Under the pieces are notes generated by a model. That model saw nothing but the letters and a program-made list of their open reading frames with translations. It searched no databases and had not been told where the DNA came from. From positions 11,598 through 75,597 of IMG/VR virus record IMGVR_UViG_3300035670_011119: 64,000 nucleotides of DNA. One strand, given 5' to 3'. The stretch comes from a virus. A program made the translations under genes and the position numbers. This document shows, piece by piece, positions 11,108 to 36,552 of the stretch (position 1 is its first letter; each line of letters starts with the position of its first letter).

Positions 11108-14100
11108 ATGTCAAATTTAGACTGTAATATATTTCAGGCATCCTTTGTCCAAAAAGCTCCGGAAATTGACAAATGGAATCTACAGTTAGGCTGGCTAAAA
11201 TCTTTAATTCCAGCTTTCAATAATAAAACTAGTGGAGTTTGGCAGCCAATCGTAATATCTAGGAGTAATAGTAATTCTATAGAATATGGTAAATTATTAA
11301 GTAATCCATATAATACTGAAGATCAACGAATGGTTCCGTGCAATTGTAGTACCGGCACCGCCGTTGTAGCAAGGAATGTTCAGCAAAAAATTGCTTTATT
11401 CGGAACCTATTTGGGTAACGAACCAGAAGATGGTATTTTTTGTAATTATTGCGAAAGCATTCGTGTAGAAGATCCAAAATATAATAATTGTATTGTGTAT
11501 GTTGATTATATTCCCAGAGAGCCAGGCATAGCTCGTAAAAGACTAACATGGCCAATAGATGAGGAAGCGGCCGAATCCGACGGCGATCCTACGATTTTTC
11601 AACCTAGTTGTTGTAAAGGAGGCTGTGATACCAGAGCGCTAACAGATGATCTAACTCCAAAAATTCCTTATCTATATACTAATTATCATTATAATTTTAG
11701 AGATTTTAAGCATCATAAACAATTTCCAGCTATTATTAATCCTGGTCTTGGATATGAAAAATTTGGTACATATAATGGTAAATATGATGATATTACTGTA
11801 AATAATATGAATTTACATATAGACTGGGTTTTGGAGCCTAGAATAGGAGAAATACAACCACCTCAAAACCATGCGAATACTCATCATGATAACATGTATT
11901 CTCATAAAAAATCTTATAAAAACTATCTAATGCAGAATAAAACATGTGGTAATTTCATTTTAACAAAAGTTAATACGTCCGATCCTGGCTCAATATCAGA
12001 ATTACAATCACAAAAAATGCCTAAAATTAGTGGTATCCATTTGGGCTCTGGCATTTCCGCTCATCCGTCTATGCCGATAACAAAATTGATACCAGCGGTA
12101 GATAAATTTACAATACCGTATGGTATCAGAGATTCTACTCACTGGAATATTTTCTTAAAAGAACCATTTGATAAAGAGGGTGGTTTATGGAAATGGAATA
12201 TTAGTTCCGGAATTATAGGTTGGTATAGATATTATGACAAAGACCGAACAAATGATACCAGACCTATTCCTCAAATAGATCTATATATTAGTGACGGAGA
12301 TGTGTTCTTTGCTACTAATGATGGACCAGAACCACTCGCCATGCCGGGATCGGATAGTAATTGTTCGCCAAAGTCATGTCCATCCGGTTTAAAACTAACT
12401 AATTATACTAATTTAAGCGCATCTGGTATGACTGTTGTGCCTAGTGGATCAGAGTTTATATATATATCACAAAATTTATATGCTCAAACATATAAATATA
12501 TGAATAAAATTATGAATATATATAAAAAACAATCCTCGTCTTTAATATATAAAGATATATTATATTCTGCTGCTATTTTATCAACAGGCCCTGTGTTTGA
12601 TGATATTACAGTAGATTTATATACTACTGGTAATTATTCTCAAGAAGCAAGAGAAGAATTTGTTAATCTTATAAATACAAGACCTGAAAATACAGGCACA
12701 ATAACACTACAACAAGTTAACTCCTACTATTCCAGTGATCAGCCAAGAGATATCTATGGTAGAAATGCTGATTTGGTAATGAAACTTACTAATAAGCCTA
12801 TGCCATCATATAATGATTTAAATATTATACAAACTACAGGCGATCTAGTAAATACCTTAATTCATAAGTATGGAGGATATTTATGGTTAAATAAAGATTC
12901 AACAGGTAGCGTATCGATTAATAAAAAAGTTTATCCGAATCTTGCAATGGATATTAATTTTGAACCAGTTATCAAACATAGTGATACATTTAATGCTGCT
13001 GCACCACGTAACAGGCTAGATTGTTCATCCACTATTAGAGGAACTACTAAAGTATTTTCTTATGATCAAAAATTTAATATTAGCAATGCTACGATAAGTA
13101 GTCGTATTTTAGATCAGGGATTAGTTTATAATGCACTATGCGATACTGGGACGGGAAGACCAGTATCCACAATTACTGATGTTGCTAATACCATGAGCGT
13201 TTTTGCTAATGATCAAAGAATACACACCCAAGCTATGTGGGAGTCTCAAACAAGATTTGAAGATATTTATTCCAGATTCCCTTCTGTATCATCTACTTTG
13301 GATCCAACATTTCAAAATTTACAATTTGCCCAAGATTCGTGGGATGATGCTAATGTATACTTTTTGGCTCCAGATAGGCAATATAGACATAAAAGAACCT
13401 ACAATGCTATCATAGGACATCCGGCCATAGATCTTGTAGCATTTCATAGAGATGGTGGGTTTTACTACGACAGCTCGGCCCTTAATAAATATCCTGGTAC
13501 TGGTACTGTTGCTTTTATTAAAAATTTTCGCATAAATAATAGAAAAACATCACCATTTGTGGAATTTAAAACATATGATGTTGGATTAAAATTTTATGAT
13601 ATAGATATATATAAACTTAGAGATCCAGATAATTTATCTTGTAGCACTATGCCATTAGATCAGTCTTGTAAGTGCTGGGATTTGGATATAGTACAAAGCT
13701 ATCCATATAAATGTAATAATAATGGTCCTGTTGTTTTAGAAACACCAGACTTATACACTCCTTACTTATCAACAGCTTCCAATCCTATAAAAGCATATGG
13801 AGGATTTCCAGCTGAAAAGGTTCAAGATCTTTTGGGAGATTTTAGATTTCCAAATCATCCTGGTATTGGTTCTAATTTAAATTTTACTAATAAAGTTCTT
13901 GATCCTGTGAATAGTTTTGGTTGTAAATATACTGCTGGTATCACACTATATACTCTTACAAATACCACATGGGAAGTTAGATTGCCCGATTGGGATTTAA
14001 ATGATGCTGATGTATGGGTTTATGCTTCTGATGGAGATATTTTTAGTAATAGAAATGCTACATTATTAATTATTAATGGAATAGAAGTTCATCCTAATAC

Positions 14101-24690: not shown

Positions 24691-25793
24691 AATTTTTTGC
24701 CTATTGTAGAATAACTAAATGATTCTTTTTGTGATATACCTAGATTTGATTTTTCATCCCAAGCTTTTTTATCTTTCTTGTAAAGACCGTATGCCTTTTG
24801 CATTTGTTTGATAAGATCGTATATATCTATTTTATACCAATGCTGGTTAGCATTATAATAGTCTGTGTTTCCGGCTATCGGATGATGAGGCATAATAACC
24901 GGAGTTTTATGACTATTGACTAAAAATCCATTATCATTATTTATGAAGTCTTTCATGCCAGAATTTTTGTTCACAATCGGATTTTTTCCTAGACACAAAG
25001 CCTCTGCTGCTGGACGACAAAACGCCTCTCCATATGAAGGCATAACAAAACAATCACAGCTAGAATGAATTCTTAAAATATCGTCATAAGATATTCTTTG
25101 TGTCATCCAAACTTCATTTTTAAATGGTTTGTTTAGATGTAGAGATTGTTTTATTTCGTTAGCAAAAGTAGTAAGCTCTTTTATATCTCCATTAGTTTTT
25201 ATTACCAAGGATACAGGATCGCCTAGATCAAAAGCTAGATTAAATGCTATTATAAGATCTTGTAAATTTTTTCTAAAATTATTCTCACATATTGTATAAA
25301 ACCTAAAATGATTTGCGATAGCGGGATTGAGTATAGCCCTAGGATATATCTTGAGTATATCTATATCTAAAGCTTCACTAATAGCCCTTATAGTTTTTGT
25401 ACATCCACTAGACTGTAAAGATTCTTTTTCTAGACTTGACGGTACCCAAATCTCATCCATTCTGTTAATATTTGATATAACCTTAGTTTTACTAAAATTA
25501 TTTATTTCTAATGTAAATAAACCAATATTTTTACCATATCTACTATCATAGTAGAAATATTCTGGTAAAGTATTTTGTATTACATAATGATATTTATCAG
25601 CTTTATTATTTTCATATGATATAATTTGTTCATCATTAAAAGATGCATCAGTATTACCAGGAGCCAAATATATTGGGCGTGTGGTTAAATTAATATTAGG
25701 CAATGAAGATATTGCTCGTATATAGTCTCTAGCGGCTAATCCCCAGCCGTCGTGCTGTCTATATGGTCCAACAAATAATATATTTGTACTCAT
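24669..25793 (-). CDS. Glycosyltransferase family 4 (GT-B)
   Basis: DEIWVPS, RKN..DLI.AF and DCFVMPSYGEAFCRPAAEA (E-x7-E). Confidence 0.9.
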   Translation of the reverse strand: MSTNILFVGPYRQHDGWGLAARDYIRAISSLPNINLTTRPIYLAPGNTDASFNDEQIISYENNKADKYHYVIQNTLPEYFYYDSRYGKNIGLFTLEINNFSKTKVISNINRMDEIWVPSSLEKESLQSSGCTKTIRAISEALDIDILKIYPRAILNPAIANHFRFYTICENNFRKNLQDLIIAFNLAFDLGDPVSLVIKTNGDIKELTTFANEIKQSLHLNKPFKNEVWMTQRISYDDILRIHSSCDCFVMPSYGEAFCRPAAEALCLGKNPIVNKNSGMKDFINNDNGFLVNSHKTPVIMPHHPIAGNTDYYNANQHWYKIDIYDLIKQMQKAYGLYKKDKKAWDEKSNLGISQKESFSYSTIGKKLCIQDSN

Positions 25794-27463
25794 GATACTG
25801 ATCCTAAATTAGCTTTAAGATGAGCATATTTAATATAATCTTCACTACTTAATTTATCTTTATTCACAATGGCTTGTTGAGCAAAATTATGATTAGATAT
25901 AATGGTTTGGATAGTGTCTATTACATTTTGTCTGGTAAACGGTTGAATTTGCATTCCGTTTTGTGTATATCCATACTCTAGATCTCTAATCATCTGTAAA
26001 GGAATAATACTATGAATGATGGGATGGTTTGGTAAAAATTGTTTCATAATATTATATACAAAATTATAATTAGTCATTCCTTTTGTAATCTCCATTATGT
26101 CGGGAGGTAATGGCTGAAAAGGATTCATAGGTTGGTCCCATTGACCTTGTAATCCAACAAGTTTAACATTATCAAAATATTTTTCCCACTTTTTTGCTAT
26201 GTCATCCCAATTATAATATAGTTCTGTTAATTTTCTAGTTTCCTGTCTTTTTTGTAGTCTTAATATTGGTGGTAGCTTATAAAGATTTTCTACTATTTCT
26301 ATAAAATGATTATTATCAGGATAAACTCTAATAGCTTGTGTTTCTAGTTCCTTAAAGGCTCTTTGTACTCTAACTGGATATCCATTTAGTTTATGAACCA
26401 CATCGTTCATAGCACTATAATCAACAGAGGCCAGAGGTATACCACATGCCCCAGCTTCAACTTGAGGCATACCAAAACCTTCGCATATAGCATACTGTAC
26501 ATAAAGATCGAATGTATTTATAATATGTGCTAGCCTATGTGAATCTATACCATTATTAACACTAGGTAATTGCATAGACTTTTGTCCACACCTAGGACAT
26601 CCAGCAACAACATGACTAAATAGCATAGAGCATATGTGTCCACAATGACGACACGCATATGTAAAAAATACCTTGTTAGATATATTATATTCTTTTAGTA
26701 ATTGCGGAATATCCCAGCCAGCATCAGGGTAGCTAGTATGAATATATAAATATGTTTTTTTATACAGCTCGGGATTCTTTTCTTGTAGAAGCTTTAGAGC
26801 ATCAAAAAGATCAGGAATTAATTTTCTCTTTTGGTTCCTAACAACGGTGCCAATAATAAAACTGTCTTCTGGAAGACCGAGGGCTATCCTAATATCTCTT
26901 TGCTCATTAATCATTGGATGAAAACATGCGAGATCAACACCAGGAGATGCTGTATCTATATAATTAGCATGATTATTACTTTGCTGTAACAATACATCTC
27001 TACCAAAATCAGAATATGTAAATAAAGCATCTGCTGATATATAAGTGTCTATCCAGGTTTCTTGTTGTGGCGACGAGTCTATTGTTGGCATTACAACCCA
27101 ATGATAGTATGGTCGTAATGGAGAGTATTGTTGATATGAATTCATCCAATAGTCGCGTATATCAAATACTATATCTGGTTTAAAGTCTAGTAATACTCTA
27201 TCAAATCTCCATTTTCCAAATTGATTTTCTGTACTATTATTATATTCTCTGGCTCTTGGATCATTGTCTGCTGGGGCATTTGCATACAACATCCAAGGAA
27301 TATTAATATCTCTTGGATCATTAACCTTAGCATAAGAAGCAAACTCTGCTACTTCATATTTATTAGTAGCATATAGTCTCTTTAATAACTCTCTACTATA
27401 GCCAGAAAATCCAGAGCTAAGATAACTAGCTTCTGAGCACATTAGTAATCTTAATTTTTTCAT
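25790..27463 (-). CDS. Glycosyltransferase family 4 with zinc-ribbon insertion
   Basis: Likely start MKKLRLLMCSE at 27463. Motifs SGFSGY, PGVD..F.P, RNQKRK and FDLYVQYAICEGFGMPQVEAGACG, with an inserted CRHC..CPRC. Confidence 0.9.
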   Translation of the reverse strand: MKKLRLLMCSEASYLSSGFSGYSRELLKRLYATNKYEVAEFASYAKVNDPRDINIPWMLYANAPADNDPRAREYNNSTENQFGKWRFDRVLLDFKPDIVFDIRDYWMNSYQQYSPLRPYYHWVVMPTIDSSPQQETWIDTYISADALFTYSDFGRDVLLQQSNNHANYIDTASPGVDLACFHPMINEQRDIRIALGLPEDSFIIGTVVRNQKRKLIPDLFDALKLLQEKNPELYKKTYLYIHTSYPDAGWDIPQLLKEYNISNKVFFTYACRHCGHICSMLFSHVVAGCPRCGQKSMQLPSVNNGIDSHRLAHIINTFDLYVQYAICEGFGMPQVEAGACGIPLASVDYSAMNDVVHKLNGYPVRVQRAFKELETQAIRVYPDNNHFIEIVENLYKLPPILRLQKRQETRKLTELYYNWDDIAKKWEKYFDNVKLVGLQGQWDQPMNPFQPLPPDIMEITKGMTNYNFVYNIMKQFLPNHPIIHSIIPLQMIRDLEYGYTQNGMQIQPFTRQNVIDTIQTIISNHNFAQQAIVNKDKLSSEDYIKYAHLKANLGSVS

Positions 27464-27483
27464 TTTTAATCCTAGAACTACCC

Positions 27484-27516
27484 AAAAAGACACAAGCCCA
27501 TATGGGCTTGTGTCTT
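27484..27516 (-). terminator. Intrinsic terminator downstream of ssb
   Basis: Perfect 30-bp palindrome AAGACACAAGCCCATATGGGCTTGTGTCTT (27487-27516) running into TTTTT on the - strand, 13 nt after the ssb stop. Confidence 0.75.
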
Positions 27517-27529
27517 CTCGGATAATAAA

Positions 27530-27904
27530 TCAGAAAGCTACAGATTCTTCCTTATTGGCATCCTTATCCTTTTTTGATAAGCGAGTAATCTTGGAAAAAT
27601 TATTAACTCTAACCTTTAGGGTGCTATGCTTAACACCATCTTTTTCCCATGTATCGTTTCTAAGAGAACCTTCAACCATCACAGGATCTCCCTTTCTAAA
27701 CGATTCTCCTATTACCTCGGCCCCGCTATCCCAAGCTTCGCAATTAACAAATGTTGTAATCTTATCTCGATCACCATTAGCCTTAGTATACTCTCTAGAA
27801 ACAGCAACTGTAAAATTAACAACAGCAGTTTCTTTACCGCCTGAATTAATATGCCTAAGTTCTGGATCGCGAGCTAGATTACCCTTGAGTAAAGTGATAT
27901 TCAT
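27530..27904 (-). CDS. ssb: Single-stranded DNA-binding protein
   Basis: MN..L.GNLARDPELR..VVNFTVAV..FVNCEAW..KGDPVMVEGSL..WEKDG; acidic C-terminus ending in F; GAGGAG RBS. Confidence 0.95.
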   Translation of the reverse strand: MNITLLKGNLARDPELRHINSGGKETAVVNFTVAVSREYTKANGDRDKITTFVNCEAWDSGAEVIGESFRKGDPVMVEGSLRNDTWEKDGVKHSTLKVRVNNFSKITRLSKKDKDANKEESVAF

Positions 27905-27949
27905 AATTTTTTATGTTCTCCTCGGAAAAAAGTAAACTCAATACAATGT

Positions 27950-27977
27950 ATTATACGTCCAGGCTTTGTTTTGTCAA
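27950..27977 (-). promoter_or_regulatory. Sigma70-type promoter for ssb
   Basis: The - strand reads TTGACA (27977-27972), 16 nt, TATAAT (27955-27950); both hexamers are perfect consensus. Confidence 0.8.
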
Positions 27978-29581
27978 GTGGTAGGTAAAAAGATCTTTTC
28001 TACTATGATTCCATCTTTAGTATTAGACTTTTTCCCTTTGATAATAATAATATTGCCTTCGAATAAAACGTGTCGAAATTGTTTGTATTGTTCAGCAAAA
28101 CAAACCACAGAATCTAAACAGCCCGTATTATCTACTACAGATAGAAATGCCATATCTTGACCTTTGCTTTTGCCACTTTTAGTCTTTACTACATGTATTC
28201 TATCAATTTCAGCCGCTAATAGTATATTAGTAATACCGATATTATTTTTTATATCTCTGCAAGTAGCATTTGTCATAGTAATATCATACATATCAATTTT
28301 TGAACATGTAATTGGACAACCTAGCAATTCATTTTCCGTATCAGAAATCCATTCGGCACTATCTTCTAAACTAAATGGAGGATGTAGCATTGTGTACATT
28401 ATTTCTTTGATAGTTGAATTTCTATTTTTAGTAATTTTACTATTATTTAGTAGATTTTCTAACGCTTTGTATAAATCTTGATTAATATTTTGTCTAAGTA
28501 ATTCTAATTCTCTTTTAGTTAGTTGACTAACTGTAGACAAATCGAATAACATAGTATTTCTTGATCTGCCAAAAATATCTAACGCTCCAGAACCTATTAG
28601 AGCCTTAGCGGCGATACTATTAATTTTTAGTAATACATCTATCAAAAAAGCATACCATCCATTCTTATTATATTCTATTGTTACAGATGATACTATCTTG
28701 ATTAGTTTATCAAAAACAGATTTACCAACGCCCTTAATATCTGTTAATCCAAAATATATAGTATTATTATCTAAACAAAAGAATTCATTTAGCAGTCTAA
28801 TGTCTGGTGGCTTAACAGAAATATCCATTTCGTTTGCATTTTGAATTAACTCTTTTATTTCTTGCTGAGGATCAATTTTATCTTTAGCAAATCTAAGATA
28901 TGAAGCAAAAAAGATTTTAGGAAAATGGGCTTTTGTATATGCTGATAAATATGCATTAATAGCATAAGATACGCTATGACTCTTATTAAACGAATATCTT
29001 TGACTTTTTTCGATCCAACTAAAAATTTCTTCTGCTTGATCCTCATTAAGAATTTTTGTAGTCTTAGATCCTTCTAAAAATTTTAATTTAACCTTTGCCA
29101 TTTCTTCCGGTTTTTTCTTGCCAATTGCTTTTCTTAACAAGTCAGCTTCTTGTAGATTAAATCCTGCTATAACCCTAGTAATGTCCATAGCCTGTTCTTG
29201 ATAAACCATCTCCCCATATGTTGGTTTTAATATAGGCTCTAAAGCAGTATGAAAATAGTCAACAGCTTCCTGACCATTTTTTTTGTCTATGTAGTGATTA
29301 CTAACGCTTTTACCATCCCTCATAGCCTCTAGACATCCTGGCCTAACTATACTAATTAGAGCAGATAATTGCTCTATATTTTCTGGTTTAAGTTTTTTAG
29401 CCATAGTACGTCCGAGTCTGCTTTCCAACTGAAAACAGCCCTTAGTATTTCCGGACGAAATAAGATCCCAGGTTTTGTCACAATCAAGAGATATATGCTC
29501 GATAGTAGCATCAAAACCAATAGAATTATTATCAGAATCGATAGGAAATTTACATCCACAATCAAATGTAAAATATTTCAT
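27974..29581 (-). CDS. dnaE: DNA polymerase III alpha subunit, C-terminal half (fingers, HhH, OB)
   Basis: GCFQLES, LSALISIVRPG, TYGEMVYQEQ, ADLLRKAIGKKK, YSFNKSHSVSYA, FGLTDIKGVG and a C-terminal OB fold (MAFLSVVD). No PHP or palm domain. Confidence 0.93.
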   Translation of the reverse strand: MKYFTFDCGCKFPIDSDNNSIGFDATIEHISLDCDKTWDLISSGNTKGCFQLESRLGRTMAKKLKPENIEQLSALISIVRPGCLEAMRDGKSVSNHYIDKKNGQEAVDYFHTALEPILKPTYGEMVYQEQAMDITRVIAGFNLQEADLLRKAIGKKKPEEMAKVKLKFLEGSKTTKILNEDQAEEIFSWIEKSQRYSFNKSHSVSYAINAYLSAYTKAHFPKIFFASYLRFAKDKIDPQQEIKELIQNANEMDISVKPPDIRLLNEFFCLDNNTIYFGLTDIKGVGKSVFDKLIKIVSSVTIEYNKNGWYAFLIDVLLKINSIAAKALIGSGALDIFGRSRNTMLFDLSTVSQLTKRELELLRQNINQDLYKALENLLNNSKITKNRNSTIKEIMYTMLHPPFSLEDSAEWISDTENELLGCPITCSKIDMYDITMTNATCRDIKNNIGITNILLAAEIDRIHVVKTKSGKSKGQDMAFLSVVDNTGCLDSVVCFAEQYKQFRHVLFEGNIIIIKGKKSNTKDGIIVEKIFLPTT

Positions 29582-30279
29582 ACTGTAGTTTTACCAAAAG
29601 AGTCCTTAAAAAGAATTTTACGAGATAATTTACGATGTAATTTCATAAATCTGATTAAAATTTCTGCACTATCTTTAACATCTTTAATCGCATCATGTGC
29701 GCCGTCTTTAGAAATACCCAAATATTCTCTTAAAGAATCTAATGAATAGCTGGATAGGTCTTGATTATTCTCGAACCATAAAAATACAATATTCATTATA
29801 TCCAGAACATCTCGCATATAAAAGATATTGCTACGATTTTCTTTATTTAGATTATTATATTTTTTACTTAATCTATCTACTATGATCAAATCAAATCTAT
29901 GAATATTATAGCCAGCAGCAATAGGAGCAGTAAATTGGCTCTTTTTACTTCCTGATCTACAGTGATACTTCGATAAATATTCGGTAAATAAATTCCAAGA
30001 TTGTTTTTGCGATGGATACTCCTTCCATTCTGCCAAAACTTGTTCTTTGGAAGAACCTTTAACTTTAGCATGAAAATCTAATATATCACCTTCGTATATA
30101 TGGTTAGGATTGTTTTCTAATACTTCTGGTTTAAAATTTATATTAAATTCAGAATCAGGAATAATAGATAATTGTAATGGATCAACCATAACCGCAGCTA
30201 TTTGTACAGGACTGCAAGATAGAGGGTCCGACCCATCTGTTTCAAAATCAAATACACAAATTTTGTTATAATTAATCAT
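29578..30279 (-). CDS. DEDDh 3'-5' exonuclease (DnaQ/epsilon-like)
   Basis: ExoI VFDFETDG, ExoII GYNIHRFD, ExoIII AHDAIKD. Confidence 0.9.
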   Translation of the reverse strand: MINYNKICVFDFETDGSDPLSCSPVQIAAVMVDPLQLSIIPDSEFNINFKPEVLENNPNHIYEGDILDFHAKVKGSSKEQVLAEWKEYPSQKQSWNLFTEYLSKYHCRSGSKKSQFTAPIAAGYNIHRFDLIIVDRLSKKYNNLNKENRSNIFYMRDVLDIMNIVFLWFENNQDLSSYSLDSLREYLGISKDGAHDAIKDVKDSAEILIRFMKLHRKLSRKILFKDSFGKTTV

Positions 30280-30457
30280 TAACTTCTACTTGTTGTACGG
30301 GAGTGATAAACTGTTTAACTTCTGGATGATTTACTTGCGCAGCATTAAGTGCGGTGCAACAACTAACCCTAATAGTTTCTATCTTAGTATAATCTATGCC
30401 CTGAAACTTAAAAGTACTACCCACAGCTAACTCATGAAACGGTACAAGTTTTGACAT
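30272..30457 (-). CDS. Small hypothetical protein (61 aa) between the dnaE halves
   Basis: ATG at 30457 is preceded by GGAG. The ORF overlaps both neighbours. Sequence includes FHELAVGSTFKFQGIDYTKI..VSCC. Confidence 0.65.
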   Translation of the reverse strand: MSKLVPFHELAVGSTFKFQGIDYTKIETIRVSCCTALNAAQVNHPEVKQFITPVQQVEVND

Positions 30458-32333
30458 TATATTCTCCATTTTTTAAAAGATCTCTTATTGTCATAATTTT
30501 ATCTAACATTGCTATGCCTAAAATATCAAATTTAATCACGCCGATACTTTCTAAATCTTGCATCTCCATACCAGCAATAAGTTGCTCATTTTTTGCATCA
30601 TAGACCATCGGACATATTTCTGCTAAAGGTTGTTCAGCAATAACTACGCCAGCAGCGTGTTTGGACTGATTTGACTTGGTCCCTTCTAATCTAATAGCTT
30701 GCTCAAACCTTTTGGCAAGTGGCCCCTTTAATTCTTGAGTATCGCTATCCAAATAACACCAGTCTCTTAATTTATCTGGATTATTTTCTAGAGCCCATTG
30801 TATTATGGAAGCTTCTCCATATTCTTCTTTCATTTCTTGAAGTTCATCTGCTATTTTTGCCTCATCAGGAATATTTTTGGTAATTTTATTCATTTCATCA
30901 AATGATATATTGCCGTATACTCTTAGTACATCTTTTAATGCGCCACGACCCTTCATTGTATTAAACGTTATCATTTGAGATACTTTATTGGTTCCATATT
31001 TTTCTTTAATATAGTTGATAATATTTTCTCTTTTATTAATAGGAACATCTACATCTATATCTGGCATAGATACTCTATCTTTAGTATTTCGACCAGCATT
31101 ATAAAATCTATCAAAGATGAGGTTGTATTTTATTGGATCAATTGAAGTAATACCTATTAGATAAGATACTAGACAACCAGCAGCACTTCCTCTACCGGGA
31201 CCGGGTAGCCAATTATTAGATCTTACATAGTTCACAATATCTTGCACAATCAAAAAATAACTAGACAGATTAGCTCCTTGTAGAACATCTAACTCATATT
31301 TAATCCTATCTACATATTCTTGTTGATTTTCTTTCGATATTGTATTTGCTATTTTGTCTCTCCAGCCATCTCTACATAATTGTCGTAAATATTCTGCGTC
31401 GTCGTACCCTGCTGGGCATTTAAAATTTGGTAGCATGGGCTTGTGTGTGATATCATAACTTTCACATAAAGAATCAACATATCTTGTATTTTCTATCTCT
31501 TCTTCTGTATGTAGAGATCTAATTTCTTCTTGCGAAAGAATATGAAAATTATCAGATGTAAAAAAACAAGATAGTCCAACATCTTCATTGTTATTTAGTT
31601 TATTTTGTATGCTTTGAAAAGTAGTTTTTAAATTATTACATAATAATACCCTTTGATCAACAGCATCTTCTTTAGTACAATAATGAGCATCTGGTGTGCA
31701 TATAACTTTTGTATTGCTTAATTGTCCAAGTGTTCTAATTTTTTCGGTTAAAATATCCTGAATAGGAGTATTAATACGATCCATTAATTGCGCTTCTAAA
31801 AATAAATTATCTCCAAATACTTCTTTTAGTTCAGATATATGATTTAGACCCATATTTTGCCAATTATCAACTATATCGTCATTCACCATAATTTTATCCG
31901 CAAGTGTTGATCCAAGATGACCGCAAATACCTATCATGTGTGGGCCACAGATCTCTTTGAGTGTATTTATATCGAGCCTGGGCTTGCGATAAAAAAAATC
32001 TGGTCTGTTGGCGCAAGAAACTAAACGAATAAGATTTTTCCATCCTTCCAAATTTTTTGCTAAAACTATGAAATGCGATAGTTTTCCGTTTTCTTTAGAC
32101 TGATCTCTTGGGTCATTATTACAGATATATAATTCGCACCCTAAAATAGGTTTAATATTTTTATTCTTCATGGCTGTAAAAAACTGCACAGCACCGGCTA
32201 TATTTCCATGGTCGGTTAGTGCGCAGGATTCTGCGCCTATATCATGGCACCTTTGTGCCATTTGTTCTGGTTTGCTAAGACCGTCCAATAAAGAAAAATG
32301 ACTATGGGTATGAAGAGGTATATAATTATTCAT
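30432..32333 (-). CDS. dnaE: DNA polymerase III alpha subunit, N-terminal half (PHP + palm/thumb)
   Basis: PHP motifs LHTHSHFSLLDG, LTDHGN, GCELY, DAHY; GPGRGSAAG; catalytic PDIDVD and KFDILG; HAAGVVI. The ORF ends 27 aa after KFDILG. Confidence 0.95.
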   Translation of the reverse strand: MNNYIPLHTHSHFSLLDGLSKPEQMAQRCHDIGAESCALTDHGNIAGAVQFFTAMKNKNIKPILGCELYICNNDPRDQSKENGKLSHFIVLAKNLEGWKNLIRLVSCANRPDFFYRKPRLDINTLKEICGPHMIGICGHLGSTLADKIMVNDDIVDNWQNMGLNHISELKEVFGDNLFLEAQLMDRINTPIQDILTEKIRTLGQLSNTKVICTPDAHYCTKEDAVDQRVLLCNNLKTTFQSIQNKLNNNEDVGLSCFFTSDNFHILSQEEIRSLHTEEEIENTRYVDSLCESYDITHKPMLPNFKCPAGYDDAEYLRQLCRDGWRDKIANTISKENQQEYVDRIKYELDVLQGANLSSYFLIVQDIVNYVRSNNWLPGPGRGSAAGCLVSYLIGITSIDPIKYNLIFDRFYNAGRNTKDRVSMPDIDVDVPINKRENIINYIKEKYGTNKVSQMITFNTMKGRGALKDVLRVYGNISFDEMNKITKNIPDEAKIADELQEMKEEYGEASIIQWALENNPDKLRDWCYLDSDTQELKGPLAKRFEQAIRLEGTKSNQSKHAAGVVIAEQPLAEICPMVYDAKNEQLIAGMEMQDLESIGVIKFDILGIAMLDKIMTIRDLLKNGEYNVKTCTVS

Positions 32334-33373
32334 TCTACGCTACCTGGGGCTTTGTACTTTCCAACAGTATAACCGGGCATTGTGTATTGGTCAACTACTT
32401 CTTTCATGCCCTTGAGTTCAATATCGTGTTTCACTTGTTCGCATTTTGTCATATGATTATTAATAGGTGTTAATTGATTATCTCTATATTCTAGTATTGG
32501 TAATACATGACTATTTTCAAATGTGGTTTTACCAAAATGACATAACTTATTGCAGATCCAGCTTTTATTTAGTTTGGGTTTTTTGGTCTTTTTAATATAT
32601 TCAAATTTATCTCTTAGCATTTGTTCGGTCTTGCTTAAATCAGACTCGTTAAAACAGACAGAAAATGGACCACCATCATTAATAAAATAAATAGTAACTA
32701 TTATGTTTTTAACATTTGGGTATATTTTTTTAATAGCATAATGATAAATACTTAATTGGGGATCTGTTTCTAGTTTTTCTTGTGTTTTTTCTGCTCCGGT
32801 AGCCCAATCTAATCTTCTGCCGGTTTTCCAGTCTATCAACTCATAAGTATCATCATCTATTTTGGTAATTAGATCGATAGTTCCCTTAATTGCTAAATTA
32901 CCCTCTAAAACTCCTTCGTTTGTTTCGTATTTATAGTATGACCATGGTTGTTCGATAGTAATATCGAATCTTTGTTCTGGACATACTATTGTTCGGTTTC
33001 TAGGATCGAACATTCCATTATGATAATTAATTGCTTTATAAACCCAACTATAACAATCTTTATAGTCTTTTTTCTCCCATTCGTGATGAGAAAACTGTTT
33101 GGTATAATATTGATATACCTGTTCTATAATATGATCTAGATTATATTTATGGGTGTCTATTTTTCCTATGGTATCATCATCGACTATTTTTTTATTATCT
33201 TGTAATCCTTGTTTAATAACGGCTAATATCTCAAGTACTTTATGTACAATCGTACCTTTATCGGCTTTTTTATTGGATGGACCTCTCCATCCTAGCACAT
33301 ATTCAAAAAAATATTGTTGTTCACACATATTATGTGCATTGTAAGAAGAACTACGAAAATATGTAATTATCAT
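32330..33373 (-). CDS. PD-(D/E)XK nuclease (RecB/Cas4-like exonuclease)
   Basis: S.S....C..QY, GTIVHKVLE, E.RF, GTIDLI, IDWKTG, QLSIY, and C-terminal C..LC.F..C (possible Fe-S ligands). Confidence 0.85.
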   Translation of the reverse strand: MIITYFRSSSYNAHNMCEQQYFFEYVLGWRGPSNKKADKGTIVHKVLEILAVIKQGLQDNKKIVDDDTIGKIDTHKYNLDHIIEQVYQYYTKQFSHHEWEKKDYKDCYSWVYKAINYHNGMFDPRNRTIVCPEQRFDITIEQPWSYYKYETNEGVLEGNLAIKGTIDLITKIDDDTYELIDWKTGRRLDWATGAEKTQEKLETDPQLSIYHYAIKKIYPNVKNIIVTIYFINDGGPFSVCFNESDLSKTEQMLRDKFEYIKKTKKPKLNKSWICNKLCHFGKTTFENSHVLPILEYRDNQLTPINNHMTKCEQVKHDIELKGMKEVVDQYTMPGYTVGKYKAPGSVE

Positions 33374-33972
33374 AAAGCCTCAGAGTATGGTAAAATATTA
33401 AATTGTAGCACTAGTCTTTTGAGATACTCAAACTGTTCTCTAACTGTCATATTGTCGTTGTTTATAATGGCACTAAAGTTTTTCCAGTTATAGTTAGCTT
33501 TATCTAAACAAGATTCGCTAGTGTGTTCTGAATTAAATGGATTTCTACTTAATCTAAATACTAATCCATTATTATTTTTAATAGCTTCTATTTCATTAGG
33601 AAATCTACAATCTGACACTATGACCATTTGATGATTATTCTTTTTAATTCTATTTATAAGAGCATTTACCCAAACATTATTATTTAATTTTCTAAATAGG
33701 TCGGTACCTATTAGTTGCATCAGATCTCTTGCTGTTAATTGTTTATTGTCCCAGTATGCATCTATGAGTTCGTTTTTACTATCGTCACTACCATAACATT
33801 GTTCGTAAGTTAATCCAAACATATTCATACAAATATCTTCTTTTAGAGGATCTGCAAAATTATATATAGGAACATCGCTGTATCCATTGGATAATAATAG
33901 TTGTTGCAAAAAATCTGAGCATACTGTTTTGCCAGATTGTTTTCTGCCGGAAAAAGCAATAATATTTACCAT
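33370..33972 (-). CDS. Deoxynucleoside monophosphate kinase (T4 gp1-like)
   Basis: SGRKQSGKT, FADPLK, RDLMQLIGTD..R, W, SDCRFPNE, H.SE. Confidence 0.9.
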   Translation of the reverse strand: MVNIIAFSGRKQSGKTVCSDFLQQLLLSNGYSDVPIYNFADPLKEDICMNMFGLTYEQCYGSDDSKNELIDAYWDNKQLTARDLMQLIGTDLFRKLNNNVWVNALINRIKKNNHQMVIVSDCRFPNEIEAIKNNNGLVFRLSRNPFNSEHTSESCLDKANYNWKNFSAIINNDNMTVREQFEYLKRLVLQFNILPYSEAL

Positions 33973-35111
33973 TTAATTTGCTCCAGATAATTTTTAATTT
34001 CTATTGTAATTTCGTCGGATGTCATTTCGCCAATATCATTTTTTGATATTTTAGGTATTAATATATTATATGTTTTTGAACATTTGTTTTGTATTTGTTC
34101 AGCAGCTTTTTTACCAGCATCGTCATTATCTGTTAAGATAATAATATTCATTGCTCCAGAAGAGTCTAGTATTAGTTTTTGTCTATCACTAAGAGAACAT
34201 CCAAAAAGACCAACACTATTGTGTATTCCATTTTCTTCTAATTTCCATACGTTGCCGGGGCTTTCAACAAGTATCACGCTTCCTGTTTCTAAAATGTGTT
34301 CTTTAGCAAACCAAAAATTATACAAATAATTTTGAGATTTAAATCCATTACTATGTTTCCATTTAGAATATTTCCAAGAATCTTGCTGTGATGGACAAGA
34401 TGTTTCAGGATTATGAAAACTGCCACACCCATTGCATTTATTAAATATGGATCTACCAGTACATCCGACTACAAATCTGTGATTATCATCATAAATTGGT
34501 GCCACAACTCTATTGTACATTTCTTTACCAGCAGTAGAACATAGTCCAACATCATACTTTTCTAGTATTTCGTTAGTATATCCTCTATCTATATAATATT
34601 TAGCAGGGATAGATAGGGCGGATCTAACGTATTGCCTGTTTACCTTGGTGCTATCAAATGTAGTTAATGGTTTAATTTTTTCTACTATTTGGGTAAATTT
34701 ATTTTTTTCTTGGGTTTTCTTTGAGACTTTAAAATCTTTCACATCTTTATTTAAAAACTCTAGTGCAAATTCTACTGCTTGATTAAAAGGATATATCTTA
34801 TCTCCATCTTGTTTCCATTCATATTTTTCTACAGACAACAAGCCCCTAATAAAACCAATAATGGATGGTTGAAATATCTTCTCGCATTGATGAGTTCTAC
34901 AGGCCCAATTTCCTCTGTAATGATCTCCCAAGTGATAAATGTTTAATGCAGACTGGTTATCTCCGCCATGTATTGGACATGACATTGTAAACATTTTGTG
35001 ATTTTCTTTGTAGTCTAATTGAAATAAATCAAATAGAGTCTCAATATTATCACATAAATTATCACAAACTAATTTCAGTTCAGACTGACTATAGGAACGG
35101 GATTTGCTCAT
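33966..35111 (-). CDS. dnaG: DNA primase (Zn-binding + Toprim)
   Basis: CPIH..W.C..H.C zinc domain, RVVAPI..VGCTGR, KS..LYN, ILVESP and LTDNDDAG. Start is either 35111 or 35129. Confidence 0.88.
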   Translation of the reverse strand: MSKSRSYSQSELKLVCDNLCDNIETLFDLFQLDYKENHKMFTMSCPIHGGDNQSALNIYHLGDHYRGNWACRTHQCEKIFQPSIIGFIRGLLSVEKYEWKQDGDKIYPFNQAVEFALEFLNKDVKDFKVSKKTQEKNKFTQIVEKIKPLTTFDSTKVNRQYVRSALSIPAKYYIDRGYTNEILEKYDVGLCSTAGKEMYNRVVAPIYDDNHRFVVGCTGRSIFNKCNGCGSFHNPETSCPSQQDSWKYSKWKHSNGFKSQNYLYNFWFAKEHILETGSVILVESPGNVWKLEENGIHNSVGLFGCSLSDRQKLILDSSGAMNIIILTDNDDAGKKAAEQIQNKCSKTYNILIPKISKNDIGEMTSDEITIEIKNYLEQIKW

Positions 35112-36552
35112 CGTTTTCGTCTGTTTCATCTGTTATAAAGCCTTCTGATTTTGCATTGGAATTATGACTTATTTCTAATTTGGTTTTACCTTCTGTAATT
35201 TTAGCGCACCAACCCTTCATGTGACAATTAATATAGTCATTATCGTCTAATCCCCCACCATGACGACTGATAATAGGTACTAATTTTCTATTGCCATTAT
35301 TTGGACCATCTTCTGCAATTTCTTCATCTGATTTTCGTTTGAAAATAGTAAAGTTACTACACAGCCATATAATTCTATCCGAACCGCTAGCCGTGTCCGT
35401 ACTTTCTTTGGTTATCCCATCCCTATTGAGCTGTACAAAAGCTACTATTGGTATTCCAAATTTGGTAGCAAAATTATGTAATTGTGTCATCATAAATCCT
35501 AATAATTGATATTCTTTAAGATCTTGACTCATACCCTGAGTATCCATCAATTTTAGGTAGTCGTAAAATACAACACACTCTTTAGCTGTGCCATCATCAT
35601 TAAGTCCAACATGCTTGAGAATCCAGCGTCTCATTATGGATAACTGTTCGTCAAATGGCTTACCAGCAATAGACTTATAATAGATAGGAATATTTGATAA
35701 TTCTTGGGTAGCTTTTTCTATTTTTTGTTTTGCGGCCGATGACTGTGCAAACTTTCCTGTTTCTATATCTCTTAATTCTGTTTCCGTCATCATTCCCAGC
35801 AATCTATGTACATGGTCTTCTTTTGTCATCTCGGTATCAAGATTAAGTACTGGAATATTAAGATTTCTGGCAATGTGAAAACCCATATTATCTACTAATA
35901 ATGTTTTTCCAGTTTTGGGCCTTGCAGCAATTACATTAACAGTACTTTTTCGTAGTCCTCCTCCTATGGCCTGATCATATATTGGAAATCCAGTTGGAAT
36001 ACCAACTTGATCCACAGGATTAGAAGACAAATATTCTATATATTCAACAATACCCTTACCCATCAGTATAGGACTGTTGTCATTATCTGTTAATGAATTT
36101 GTAAAACCTAAAATGGATTCTTCTGCTATTCCTACAATATGGCCAACAGATTCACTACCATTAATGTCTAAAATCTTTTCTTGTACAACCTCTAATTCTT
36201 TATGCAAAGATCTAGCAATTTCTAGCTTTTTGATTTTTGCAGCAAATTTTCTAATATTATCTTTTCCGACAGGAAAATCAACAATCGCCCTAAGATGTTG
36301 TGCTTCATCTTTTGAAGATATTAAATGAGAAACTCCTATTTCGCTAGCAGCAGAATATATTGATGGTATATCAATGTTTAGAGTAGCATCTTTATCATAA
36401 AGATGCTTGATACATTTATATATTAGACTATTACTATCTATAGTGAAACATTTCTCATCTATAAGATCAGCAATATCTAGATAAACCTCTTCACCAAATC
36501 TACATATTCCAGCTAAAACGGCTCTCTCAGCCGCTGTATCACTTAATATCAT
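35089..36552 (-). CDS. dnaB: Replicative DNA helicase
   Basis: AERAVLAG N-domain, GIPTGF, Walker A ARPKTGKT, DTEM, YDYLKLM, VQLNR, SRHG. Confidence 0.95.
   Translation of the reverse strand: MILSDTAAERAVLAGICRFGEEVYLDIADLIDEKCFTIDSNSLIYKCIKHLYDKDATLNIDIPSIYSAASEIGVSHLISSKDEAQHLRAIVDFPVGKDNIRKFAAKIKKLEIARSLHKELEVVQEKILDINGSESVGHIVGIAEESILGFTNSLTDNDNSPILMGKGIVEYIEYLSSNPVDQVGIPTGFPIYDQAIGGGLRKSTVNVIAARPKTGKTLLVDNMGFHIARNLNIPVLNLDTEMTKEDHVHRLLGMMTETELRDIETGKFAQSSAAKQKIEKATQELSNIPIYYKSIAGKPFDEQLSIMRRWILKHVGLNDDGTAKECVVFYDYLKLMDTQGMSQDLKEYQLLGFMMTQLHNFATKFGIPIVAFVQLNRDGITKESTDTASGSDRIIWLCSNFTIFKRKSDEEIAEDGPNNGNRKLVPIISRHGGGLDDNDYINCHMKGWCAKITEGKTKLEISHNSNAKSEGFITDETDENDEQIPFL

Follow-up and report, generated by a model that had tools for sequence, protein, structure and literature searches.

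A phage DnaE polymerase encoded in intein-less pieces around an exonuclease gene and probably working as a non-covalent complex

How could a replicative DNA polymerase of the C family function when its gene is cut in two, two other genes lie between the halves, and neither half carries an intein? This question is raised by a locus in a 64,000-nucleotide stretch of viral DNA (positions 11,598 to 75,597 of the IMG/VR record IMGVR_UViG_3300035670_011119), which as a whole is called the window below and whose first letter is position 1. The source record is a 75.6-kb IMG/VR viral contig of an uncultured freshwater phage with a G+C content of about 32%, estimated by CheckV to be about 52% complete. 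The genes for the N- and C-terminal halves of a DnaE-type polymerase (Pol III alpha), dnaE-N and dnaE-C, enclose a small open reading frame (ORF) and an exonuclease gene. We consider it likely that these genes encode the core of the phage replicative polymerase in pieces, and that the pieces would work as a non-covalent complex. The features in question are the following.

30432-32333, minus strand: dnaE-N, 633 amino acids; PHP, palm and thumb domains; aligns with residues 8-636 of Taq alpha
30272-30457, minus strand: small ORF, 61 amino acids counted from Met5; the ORF reaches 30469 (65 amino acids from the first ATG)
29578-30279, minus strand: DnaQ-like DEDDh 3'-5' exonuclease, 233 amino acids
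27974-29581, minus strand: dnaE-C, 535 amino acids; fingers, helix-hairpin-helix (HhH) and OB fold
29480-29581, minus strand: head of the C-half (residues 1-34), a three-cysteine beta-hairpin

An initial annotation of this DNA had described four ORFs, each overlapping its neighbours, with the 61-residue ORF and a DEDDh exonuclease between the halves; when the coordinates were re-read, all of them matched. The overlaps amount to 26 nt between the N-half and the small ORF (counted from Met5), 8 nt between the small ORF and the exonuclease gene, and 4 nt (ATGA) between the exonuclease gene and the C-half. A GGAG sequence is located 9 nt upstream of Met5 (30457) of the small ORF. The N-half of the window has a tail of about 9 residues beyond most relatives (633 versus about 624 amino acids), and it is this tail that overlaps the small ORF.

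Pfam analysis of the N-half detected PHP (1.9e-34) and DNA_pol3_alpha (PF07733, positions 1-260 of 260, 7.8e-76), while the C-half matched DNA_pol3_finger (PF17657, 18-164 of 166, 2.1e-46) in addition to HHH_6 and the OB fold. The three catalytic aspartates are found in the N-half, in PDIDVD at residue 424 (D425 and D427) and in KFDILG at 601 (D603), and align with the motifs of Taq alpha; the alignment to E. coli alpha also covers this region. The GRGSAAG nucleotide-binding loop begins at residue 380, and the N-half stops 30 residues past D603. The C-half contains the fingers motifs LLRKAIGKKK at 148 and FNKSHS at 198, aligns with E. coli residues 586-903, and was modeled by AlphaFold2 with a predicted local distance difference test (pLDDT) score of 89.7. 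The window polymerase thus has the N-terminal PHP, the Pol-beta-like palm with three catalytic aspartates, and the fingers, HhH and OB modules of a DnaE-type enzyme. It is not one continuous polypeptide, as the first chain stops after 633 residues, two genes follow, and the C-half has a start of its own.

The alignments place the cut precisely. Against Taq alpha the N-half extends to residue 636 and the C-half begins at 638, and against E. coli alpha the N-half ends at about 566-575 and the C-half starts at 586. Similarly, the two halves cover positions 41-616 and 622-1076 of phrog_405, and 5-576 and 581-1052 of the 1146 positions of the NCBIfam model PRK05673. The third catalytic aspartate is followed by a helix and then a loop, and it is in this loop that the single cut falls, with no residue missing. 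Pfam, motif and structure alignments hence bear out what had been proposed at first, namely that the N-half carries PHP and all three catalytic aspartates and that the C-half resumes at the next conserved block, and the alignments of both halves to the Taq and E. coli proteins put the cut at the palm/fingers junction, as claimed. With the palm aspartates and the GRGSAAG loop contributed by the N-half and the fingers motifs by the C-half, the active site is divided between two proteins. The C-half reaches only position 1052 of the 1146 in PRK05673 and has no tau-binding tail; a clamp-binding motif of the QL[SD]LF type was not recognised in the window polymerase.

In the PHP domain, residues H8, H10, D17, H42, E67, H87, H139, D215 and H217 occupy nine positions of the Taq alpha alignment that we take to be metal ligands in the Taq enzyme, with H139 standing where Taq has a cysteine. 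The PHP domain of the N-half (residues 8-217) may therefore be an active nuclease beside the separate DEDDh exonuclease.

No sign of splicing was found. The initial annotation had seen no intein termini in either half, and an intein profile scan agreed with it: neither half had a Hint or intein match in the Pfam library (E ≤ 0.01), which as a positive control detected inteins in the relatives L060, P0007 and P0019 and the N part of a split intein in P0005. Such an N part (about 90-105 amino acids with a Cys start) is absent from the end of dnaE-N, and among the relatives the tail past the last homologous residue is only 0-10 amino acids long, variable, and devoid of conserved Cys, Ser or Thr. 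A split-intein C part (about 33-54 amino acids, Asn followed by Cys, Ser or Thr) is likewise absent from dnaE-C, the head of which has about 18 extra residues and no such junction. The gap of the window contains the small protein and the DEDDh exonuclease and no homing endonuclease gene. No Rfam intron family was matched within 27000-33500; the sole Rfam match, to a miRNA family, reached 29 bits where the gathering score is 98 and was dismissed as chance.

The four genes are part of a replication block with the order DnaB-like helicase, DnaG-like primase, dNMP kinase, PD-(D/E)XK nuclease, the four genes, single-stranded DNA-binding protein (SSB) and glycosyltransferase. The stop codon of the PD-(D/E)XK gene and the start of dnaE-N overlap by 4 nt (ATGA). 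The neighbouring features are as follows.

33370-36552, minus strand: dNMP kinase, DnaG-like primase and DnaB-like helicase, the upstream replication genes of the same block
32330-33373, minus strand: PD-(D/E)XK nuclease gene, directly upstream of dnaE-N
27530-27904, minus strand: SSB gene, directly downstream of dnaE-C
25790-27493 of the window: glycosyltransferase, 567 amino acids, with an internal zinc ribbon; adjoins the SSB gene

The IMG/VR database contained 315 close relatives, of which 80 loci were fetched and compared. All 80 keep the order primase, dNMP kinase, PD-(D/E)XK, N-half, small ORF, exonuclease, C-half, SSB and glycosyltransferase, the last being seen next to SSB in 56 loci while the remainder end before it. 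By their identity to the window copy, the glycosyltransferases fall into two classes, of about 38-45% and about 53-68%. The protein sizes in these loci vary little, with 612-633 amino acids for the N-half, 56-72 for the small protein, 228-235 for the exonuclease and 533-559 for the C-half. Single-protein scans of IMG/VR with P0090 and P0017 gave no matches; an alignment query instead gave at least 549 loci, and 80 of these, with 41-50% identity to P0017, were fetched. The order of N-half, small ORF where present, exonuclease and C-half was found in nearly all of these 80 more distant loci; the deeper lineages lack the small ORF, and there the exonuclease gene begins 9-35 nt after the N-half. 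When 1.84 billion cluster representatives were searched exhaustively, the best 150 clusters (formed at 50% identity) had 38-69% identity, and about 140 of them end at the same boundary. The initial expectation that the split point and the inserted genes recur in related phage contigs was thus borne out in the 160 fetched loci. Among cultured phages, blastn with the stretch gave no match, and the best protein match had 34% identity.

All four genes are under purifying selection, and strongly so in both halves. The median ratio of non-synonymous to synonymous substitution rates (dN/dS) was 0.045 for the N-half, 0.091 for the small protein, 0.028 for the exonuclease and 0.044 for the C-half. Near-identical DNA was present in sequencing runs of 12 lake or freshwater studies (2011-2024) and in one subsurface study, perhaps that of the source sample. 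Contigs from three of the four runs compared bridge the junctions collinearly; those from two runs, a DNA run of 2011 and one of an RNA library, cover 27400-33000 without gaps, and a 2024 contig crosses all three junctions. Two runs (X20 and X2) leave parts of the stretch uncovered, to which no weight was attached. In the contigs of the DNA and RNA libraries compared, no joint skipping the insert was found, so the misassembly that had been named as a possible refutation was not seen in independent public assemblies. The feature is real and conserved, and the earlier reading of it is supported.

The exonuclease has the residues D11, E13, D130, H195 and D200, that is, the DEDDh pattern of motifs Exo I, II and III with the histidine. 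It matched Pfam RNase_T with 43.1 bits (cut-off 24) and phrog_192, "DNA polymerase exonuclease subunit", at 1e-18, while NCBIfam epsilon models scored far under their cut-offs. Its gene position and conservation suggest that it may bind the polymerase and proofread for it. The small protein (56-72 amino acids) was present in 78 of the 80 close relatives, with F7, F16, C33 and C34 invariant and the cysteine pair contained in an SCC..NA motif. AlphaFold2 predicted it to be a five-strand SH3-like barrel (pLDDT 94.6). It had no Pfam, PHROG or NCBIfam match, the ESM Atlas gave only unnamed viral clusters, and Foldseek gave only weak hits, the best being domain I of eIF5A/EF-P with an E-value of about 0.01, which we take as resemblance to a generic SH3-like barrel in the model rather than as homology. 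A relationship to theta (HolE/HOT) was considered and rejected, as theta is helical and the AlphaFold2 model is all-beta.

The head of the C-half comprises about 18 residues beyond single-chain DnaE, with the pattern aromatic-x-aromatic-x-C-G-C-x-F, about 20 residues, and L-D-C. Residues C8, G9, C10, F12 and C34 are conserved to at least 90% among 46 diverse C-halves, and AlphaFold2 predicted a hairpin with strands at 3-5 and 11-15 (pLDDT about 88). The head was found in split lineages both with and without the small ORF and is absent from every joined form. It probably originated together with the split and would serve as a cap or dock; possibly, though this is a guess, it binds metal. The idea that the cysteine pair of the small protein and the CxC head form a common zinc site was weakened by the occurrence of the head where the small ORF is absent.

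Joined DnaE proteins also exist among the relatives (P0017, P0010, P0042, P0074, and the loci L087 and L164). The initial annotation would have been contradicted by relatives with an intact dnaE together with relaxed selection on the halves; joined genes do occur (P0017, P0042, P0074 and L087/L164), but the dN/dS of the halves, about 0.045, gives no sign of relaxation. In the trees of the N-half, the joined P forms are nested at two places inside the split clade. An approximately unbiased (AU) test rejected a single clade of split forms (p 0.0175), the group having been named after the tree was seen. Given that the split site, the nested exonuclease and the head are common to the split forms, a single old split followed by re-fusions would be the more parsimonious history, though it is not proven. 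As the joined forms are nested in the split clade, they do not count against the function of the split form. In L087 and L164 (5286-9402 each), the joined DnaE has 1139 amino acids and no CxC head, and its gene is immediately preceded by the exonuclease gene, at a distance of 4 nt.

Several variants of the locus were noted among the relatives. Many N-halves, of 950-1421 amino acids, carry large inserts at two recurrent sites with the split boundary unchanged in all of them: after residue ~66, following GCE (P0019, P0036 and P0064), and after residue ~382, following the GPGRGS loop (P0007, P0021, P0029, P0031 and others). Pfam confirmed an intein in both inserts tested, P0019 and P0007, the latter with LAGLIDADG. 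The C-half genes of L060 (10726-13089), L076 and L094 encode 788-799 amino acids; a cis-intein with an HNH endonuclease lies in their fingers between RPG and C (CISGDTKI…VVHN/CLEA), detected by Pfam in L060, while L076, judged by sequence, carries the same CI(S/A)GDTKI…VHN/CLEA insert. The window is intein-free at this site (residue C83). P0005 (891 amino acids) and P0038 (881 amino acids) are joined at the palm/fingers loop and broken instead at FNK/C and FNA/C, respectively, near the cyanobacterial site, and end in an apparent split-intein N part, which makes them a "fractured gene" version of the same polymerase; Pfam Intein_splicing matches P0005, while P0038 was assigned by sequence similarity only.

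Other loci contain additional ORFs at the break: an extra 227-residue Cys-rich ORF follows the N-half in L075 (2130-2810) and L078, a suspected homing endonuclease that had no Pfam match, and two extra ORFs of 146 and 191 amino acids precede the C-half in L003 (10769-11781) and L004. These fit an insertion-tolerant site. In P0126 (762 amino acids), the N-half is C-terminally fused to a circularly permuted YpsA SLOG domain (PF12694, 1.6e-35). Two human-faecal "Bacteriophage sp." records, MT835501.1 and MT835885.1 (L085 and L086), were considered as joined phage DnaE and rejected, because they look bacterial and have a pfkA-like neighbour; the gene after dnaE shows a phosphofructokinase-like N-terminal motif when read by eye. 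Their DnaE proteins (1140-1153 amino acids) served as outgroup only. Bacillus phage 019DV002 has a joined dnaE gene. In Bacillus phage vB_BceM_WH1 (LC597490.1, L083:3911-8109), DnaE is spread over three CDS, gp235, gp236 and gp237, with gaps of 400-700 nt and breaks elsewhere than in the window.

In the three complete relatives (192-231 kb), one DnaE palm match was found in each, and no PolA, PolB or beta-clamp N-domain.

Taken together, the data suggest how the pieces could work. The product of dnaE-N would supply PHP, the palm with the three aspartates, the GRGSAAG loop and the thumb, and that of dnaE-C would supply the fingers and the HhH and OB DNA-binding modules, the conserved basic residues of the fingers being those assigned to the incoming dNTP in single-chain DnaE. 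The halves would associate without a peptide bond across the loop cut, and the active site would exist only in the complex. The DEDDh exonuclease encoded in the gap would be the epsilon-like proofreading partner, and the 61-residue barrel protein is probably a further accessory subunit. The stop/start overlaps suggest coupled translation, by which the proteins would be made side by side and in near-equal amounts. The terms "co-translated" and "non-covalently assembled", both used in the initial annotation, are what we infer from the ATGA overlaps and the divided active site. Enzymes encoded by genes in pieces are known to work as non-covalent assemblies, for example gp43A/B and NrdA of Aeh1. 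According to PMC2988022 (citing Petrov et al. 2010), the gp43A and gp43B pieces co-purify and are active, which indicates that split phage polymerases can work.

Could the halves nevertheless be rejoined covalently? An atypical, very short split intein, another form of ligation, an intron or ribosomal bypass might do so. Inteins are indeed common in this DnaE family, at N-half residues 66 and 382, at the RPG/C site of the C-half and, as a split intein, at FNK/C, and the head of the C-half has conserved cysteines. A HINT fold, however, needs roughly 130 residues, far above the N-half tail and the head combined; the tail is short and variable, and the head lacks an Asn-Cys/Ser/Thr junction. Hint matches, intron families and insert-skipping contigs were all missing from the searches described above, and purifying selection acts on both proteins encoded in the ~870 nt that separate the halves. 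We therefore regard covalent rejoining as very improbable. For misassembly, a frameshift error or pseudogene decay no favourable evidence was found, and these explanations are refuted by the 160 loci from different metagenomes, the collinear contigs of different studies and years, and a dN/dS far below 1.

Alternatively, the halves may no longer form one polymerase and may have taken on separate roles, for example as a PHP nuclease and a DNA-binding factor, with the host Pol III copying the phage. No phage clamp or clamp-binding motif was identified, and a PHP domain with metal-ligand-type residues at the nine positions read off the Taq alignment could act alone as a nuclease. Against this, both halves have kept polymerase-specific residues at a dN/dS of about 0.045 in a clade that has diverged to 38% identity, they are always adjacent and in the same order, and they are surrounded by helicase, primase and SSB genes. 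Moreover, the nested joined forms imply that the halves still fit together, and we consider separate roles improbable.

A non-covalent polymerase complex thus remains the likely explanation, although some observations weigh against it or against parts of it. Deeper split lineages lack the small ORF, so the small protein is not required for assembly, and one split sublineage lacks the CxC head, which is hence not indispensable. The RNA-library contigs leave room for a rare spliced form or variant. As the genome in the window is incomplete, its DnaE being the only polymerase depends on the relatives. We also entertain, as a doubtful extension, that the split is an assembly interlock and not a tolerated scar. 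The start of dnaE-C falls on the stop codon of the exonuclease gene and both halves contribute to the active site, so that polymerase activity might be confined to places where the proofreader has just been synthesised; the hairpin might be a zinc-dependent dock replacing the peptide bond. Within a very large aquatic phage clade, the arrangement might be ancient and might have been reversed by re-fusion on two or more occasions, the exonuclease gene being relocated upstream.

In its composition the window resembles the E. coli Pol III core (alpha, epsilon and theta) and PolC, in which a C-family polymerase is combined with a DEDDh proofreader, and the E. coli core adds a small third protein. 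The genes of the E. coli core are dispersed and alpha is one chain; in PolC the DEDDh exonuclease is a domain fused inside PHP, whereas in the window it is encoded by its own gene at the palm/fingers junction. According to the survey in PMC3201878, viral C-family polymerases have the same domain layout as the E. coli enzyme. In the cyanobacterial split DnaE, as described in PMC2677866, Pol III alpha is likewise made from two genes and both pieces are needed, but the halves carry split-intein parts, are ligated, and are encoded far apart, whereas the window halves lack an intein and lie in one packed, overlapping block with partner genes between them. The cyanobacterial cut is close to FNKSH, about 175 residues downstream of the one in the window; the two NCBIfam models for the cyanobacterial pieces adjoin at residue ~198 of the window C-half, in agreement with the initial statement that the cyanobacterial site is the more downstream one.

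The fractured genes of Dassa et al. 2009 (PMC2677866), which include three DnaE loci, contain split inteins, and their gap is occupied by a free-standing homing endonuclease. They resemble the window in that the two parts of a replication gene are neighbours separated by another gene, and in coming from aquatic metagenomes; they differ in that the window has no intein and a gap filled by a conserved exonuclease and a micro-protein; one intein-less, SbcD-like case in that study has added residues beside the break. The split PolB of Aeromonas phages 25 and 44RR, gp43A/gp43B, resembles the window in its two adjacent genes without an intein (PMC2988022, citing Petrov et al. 2010). As given there, it differs in belonging to family B and not C, in that its gap is filled by an untranslated spacer or a homing endonuclease rather than by a functional partner gene, and in its restriction to a narrow phage group. 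Group 2.2 jumbo phages (Iyer et al. 2021, PMC7824862) encode a Pol III alpha module as two stand-alone proteins, for which reconstitution has been proposed, but this minimal core lacks PHP and other domains, is encoded by widely separated genes and occurs beside a PolB replicase, whereas the window has a full-length DnaE cut once and it is the only polymerase found.

The closest cultured parallel is Rossellomorea phage phiT1 (gp20, gp19 and gp18; PV767480.1), which is cut in the same loop (…NQGVAV, stop / MFDILDIPLDD…) and has a small ORF in the gap. This gap holds only an ORF of 49 amino acids with no BLAST link to the small protein of the window, and phiT1 has no exonuclease there and no CxC head. 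With 34-38% identity, phiT1 branches in the trees as the sister of the large clade and is a singleton among cultured phages; its split need not share a single origin with that of the aquatic clade. No published description of the present arrangement was found in a literature search beyond which most subscription journals lay.

If the reading is correct, this is a natural and widespread C-family replicase whose active site is built from two chains without protein splicing, while the split DnaE proteins with demonstrated rejoining use inteins, as far as the literature search showed. It would mark a permissive cut site in Pol III alpha together with a candidate docking element, which would be useful for structure and function studies and for the engineering of split polymerases. 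Within one clade, a natural series of split forms, split forms with extra inserts, split-intein forms and re-joined forms is available for examining the costs and gains of splitting, and the cultured phiT1 provides an experimental entry point. Lakes and oceans harbour the clade in abundance, so phage DNA in these waters may commonly be replicated in this way.

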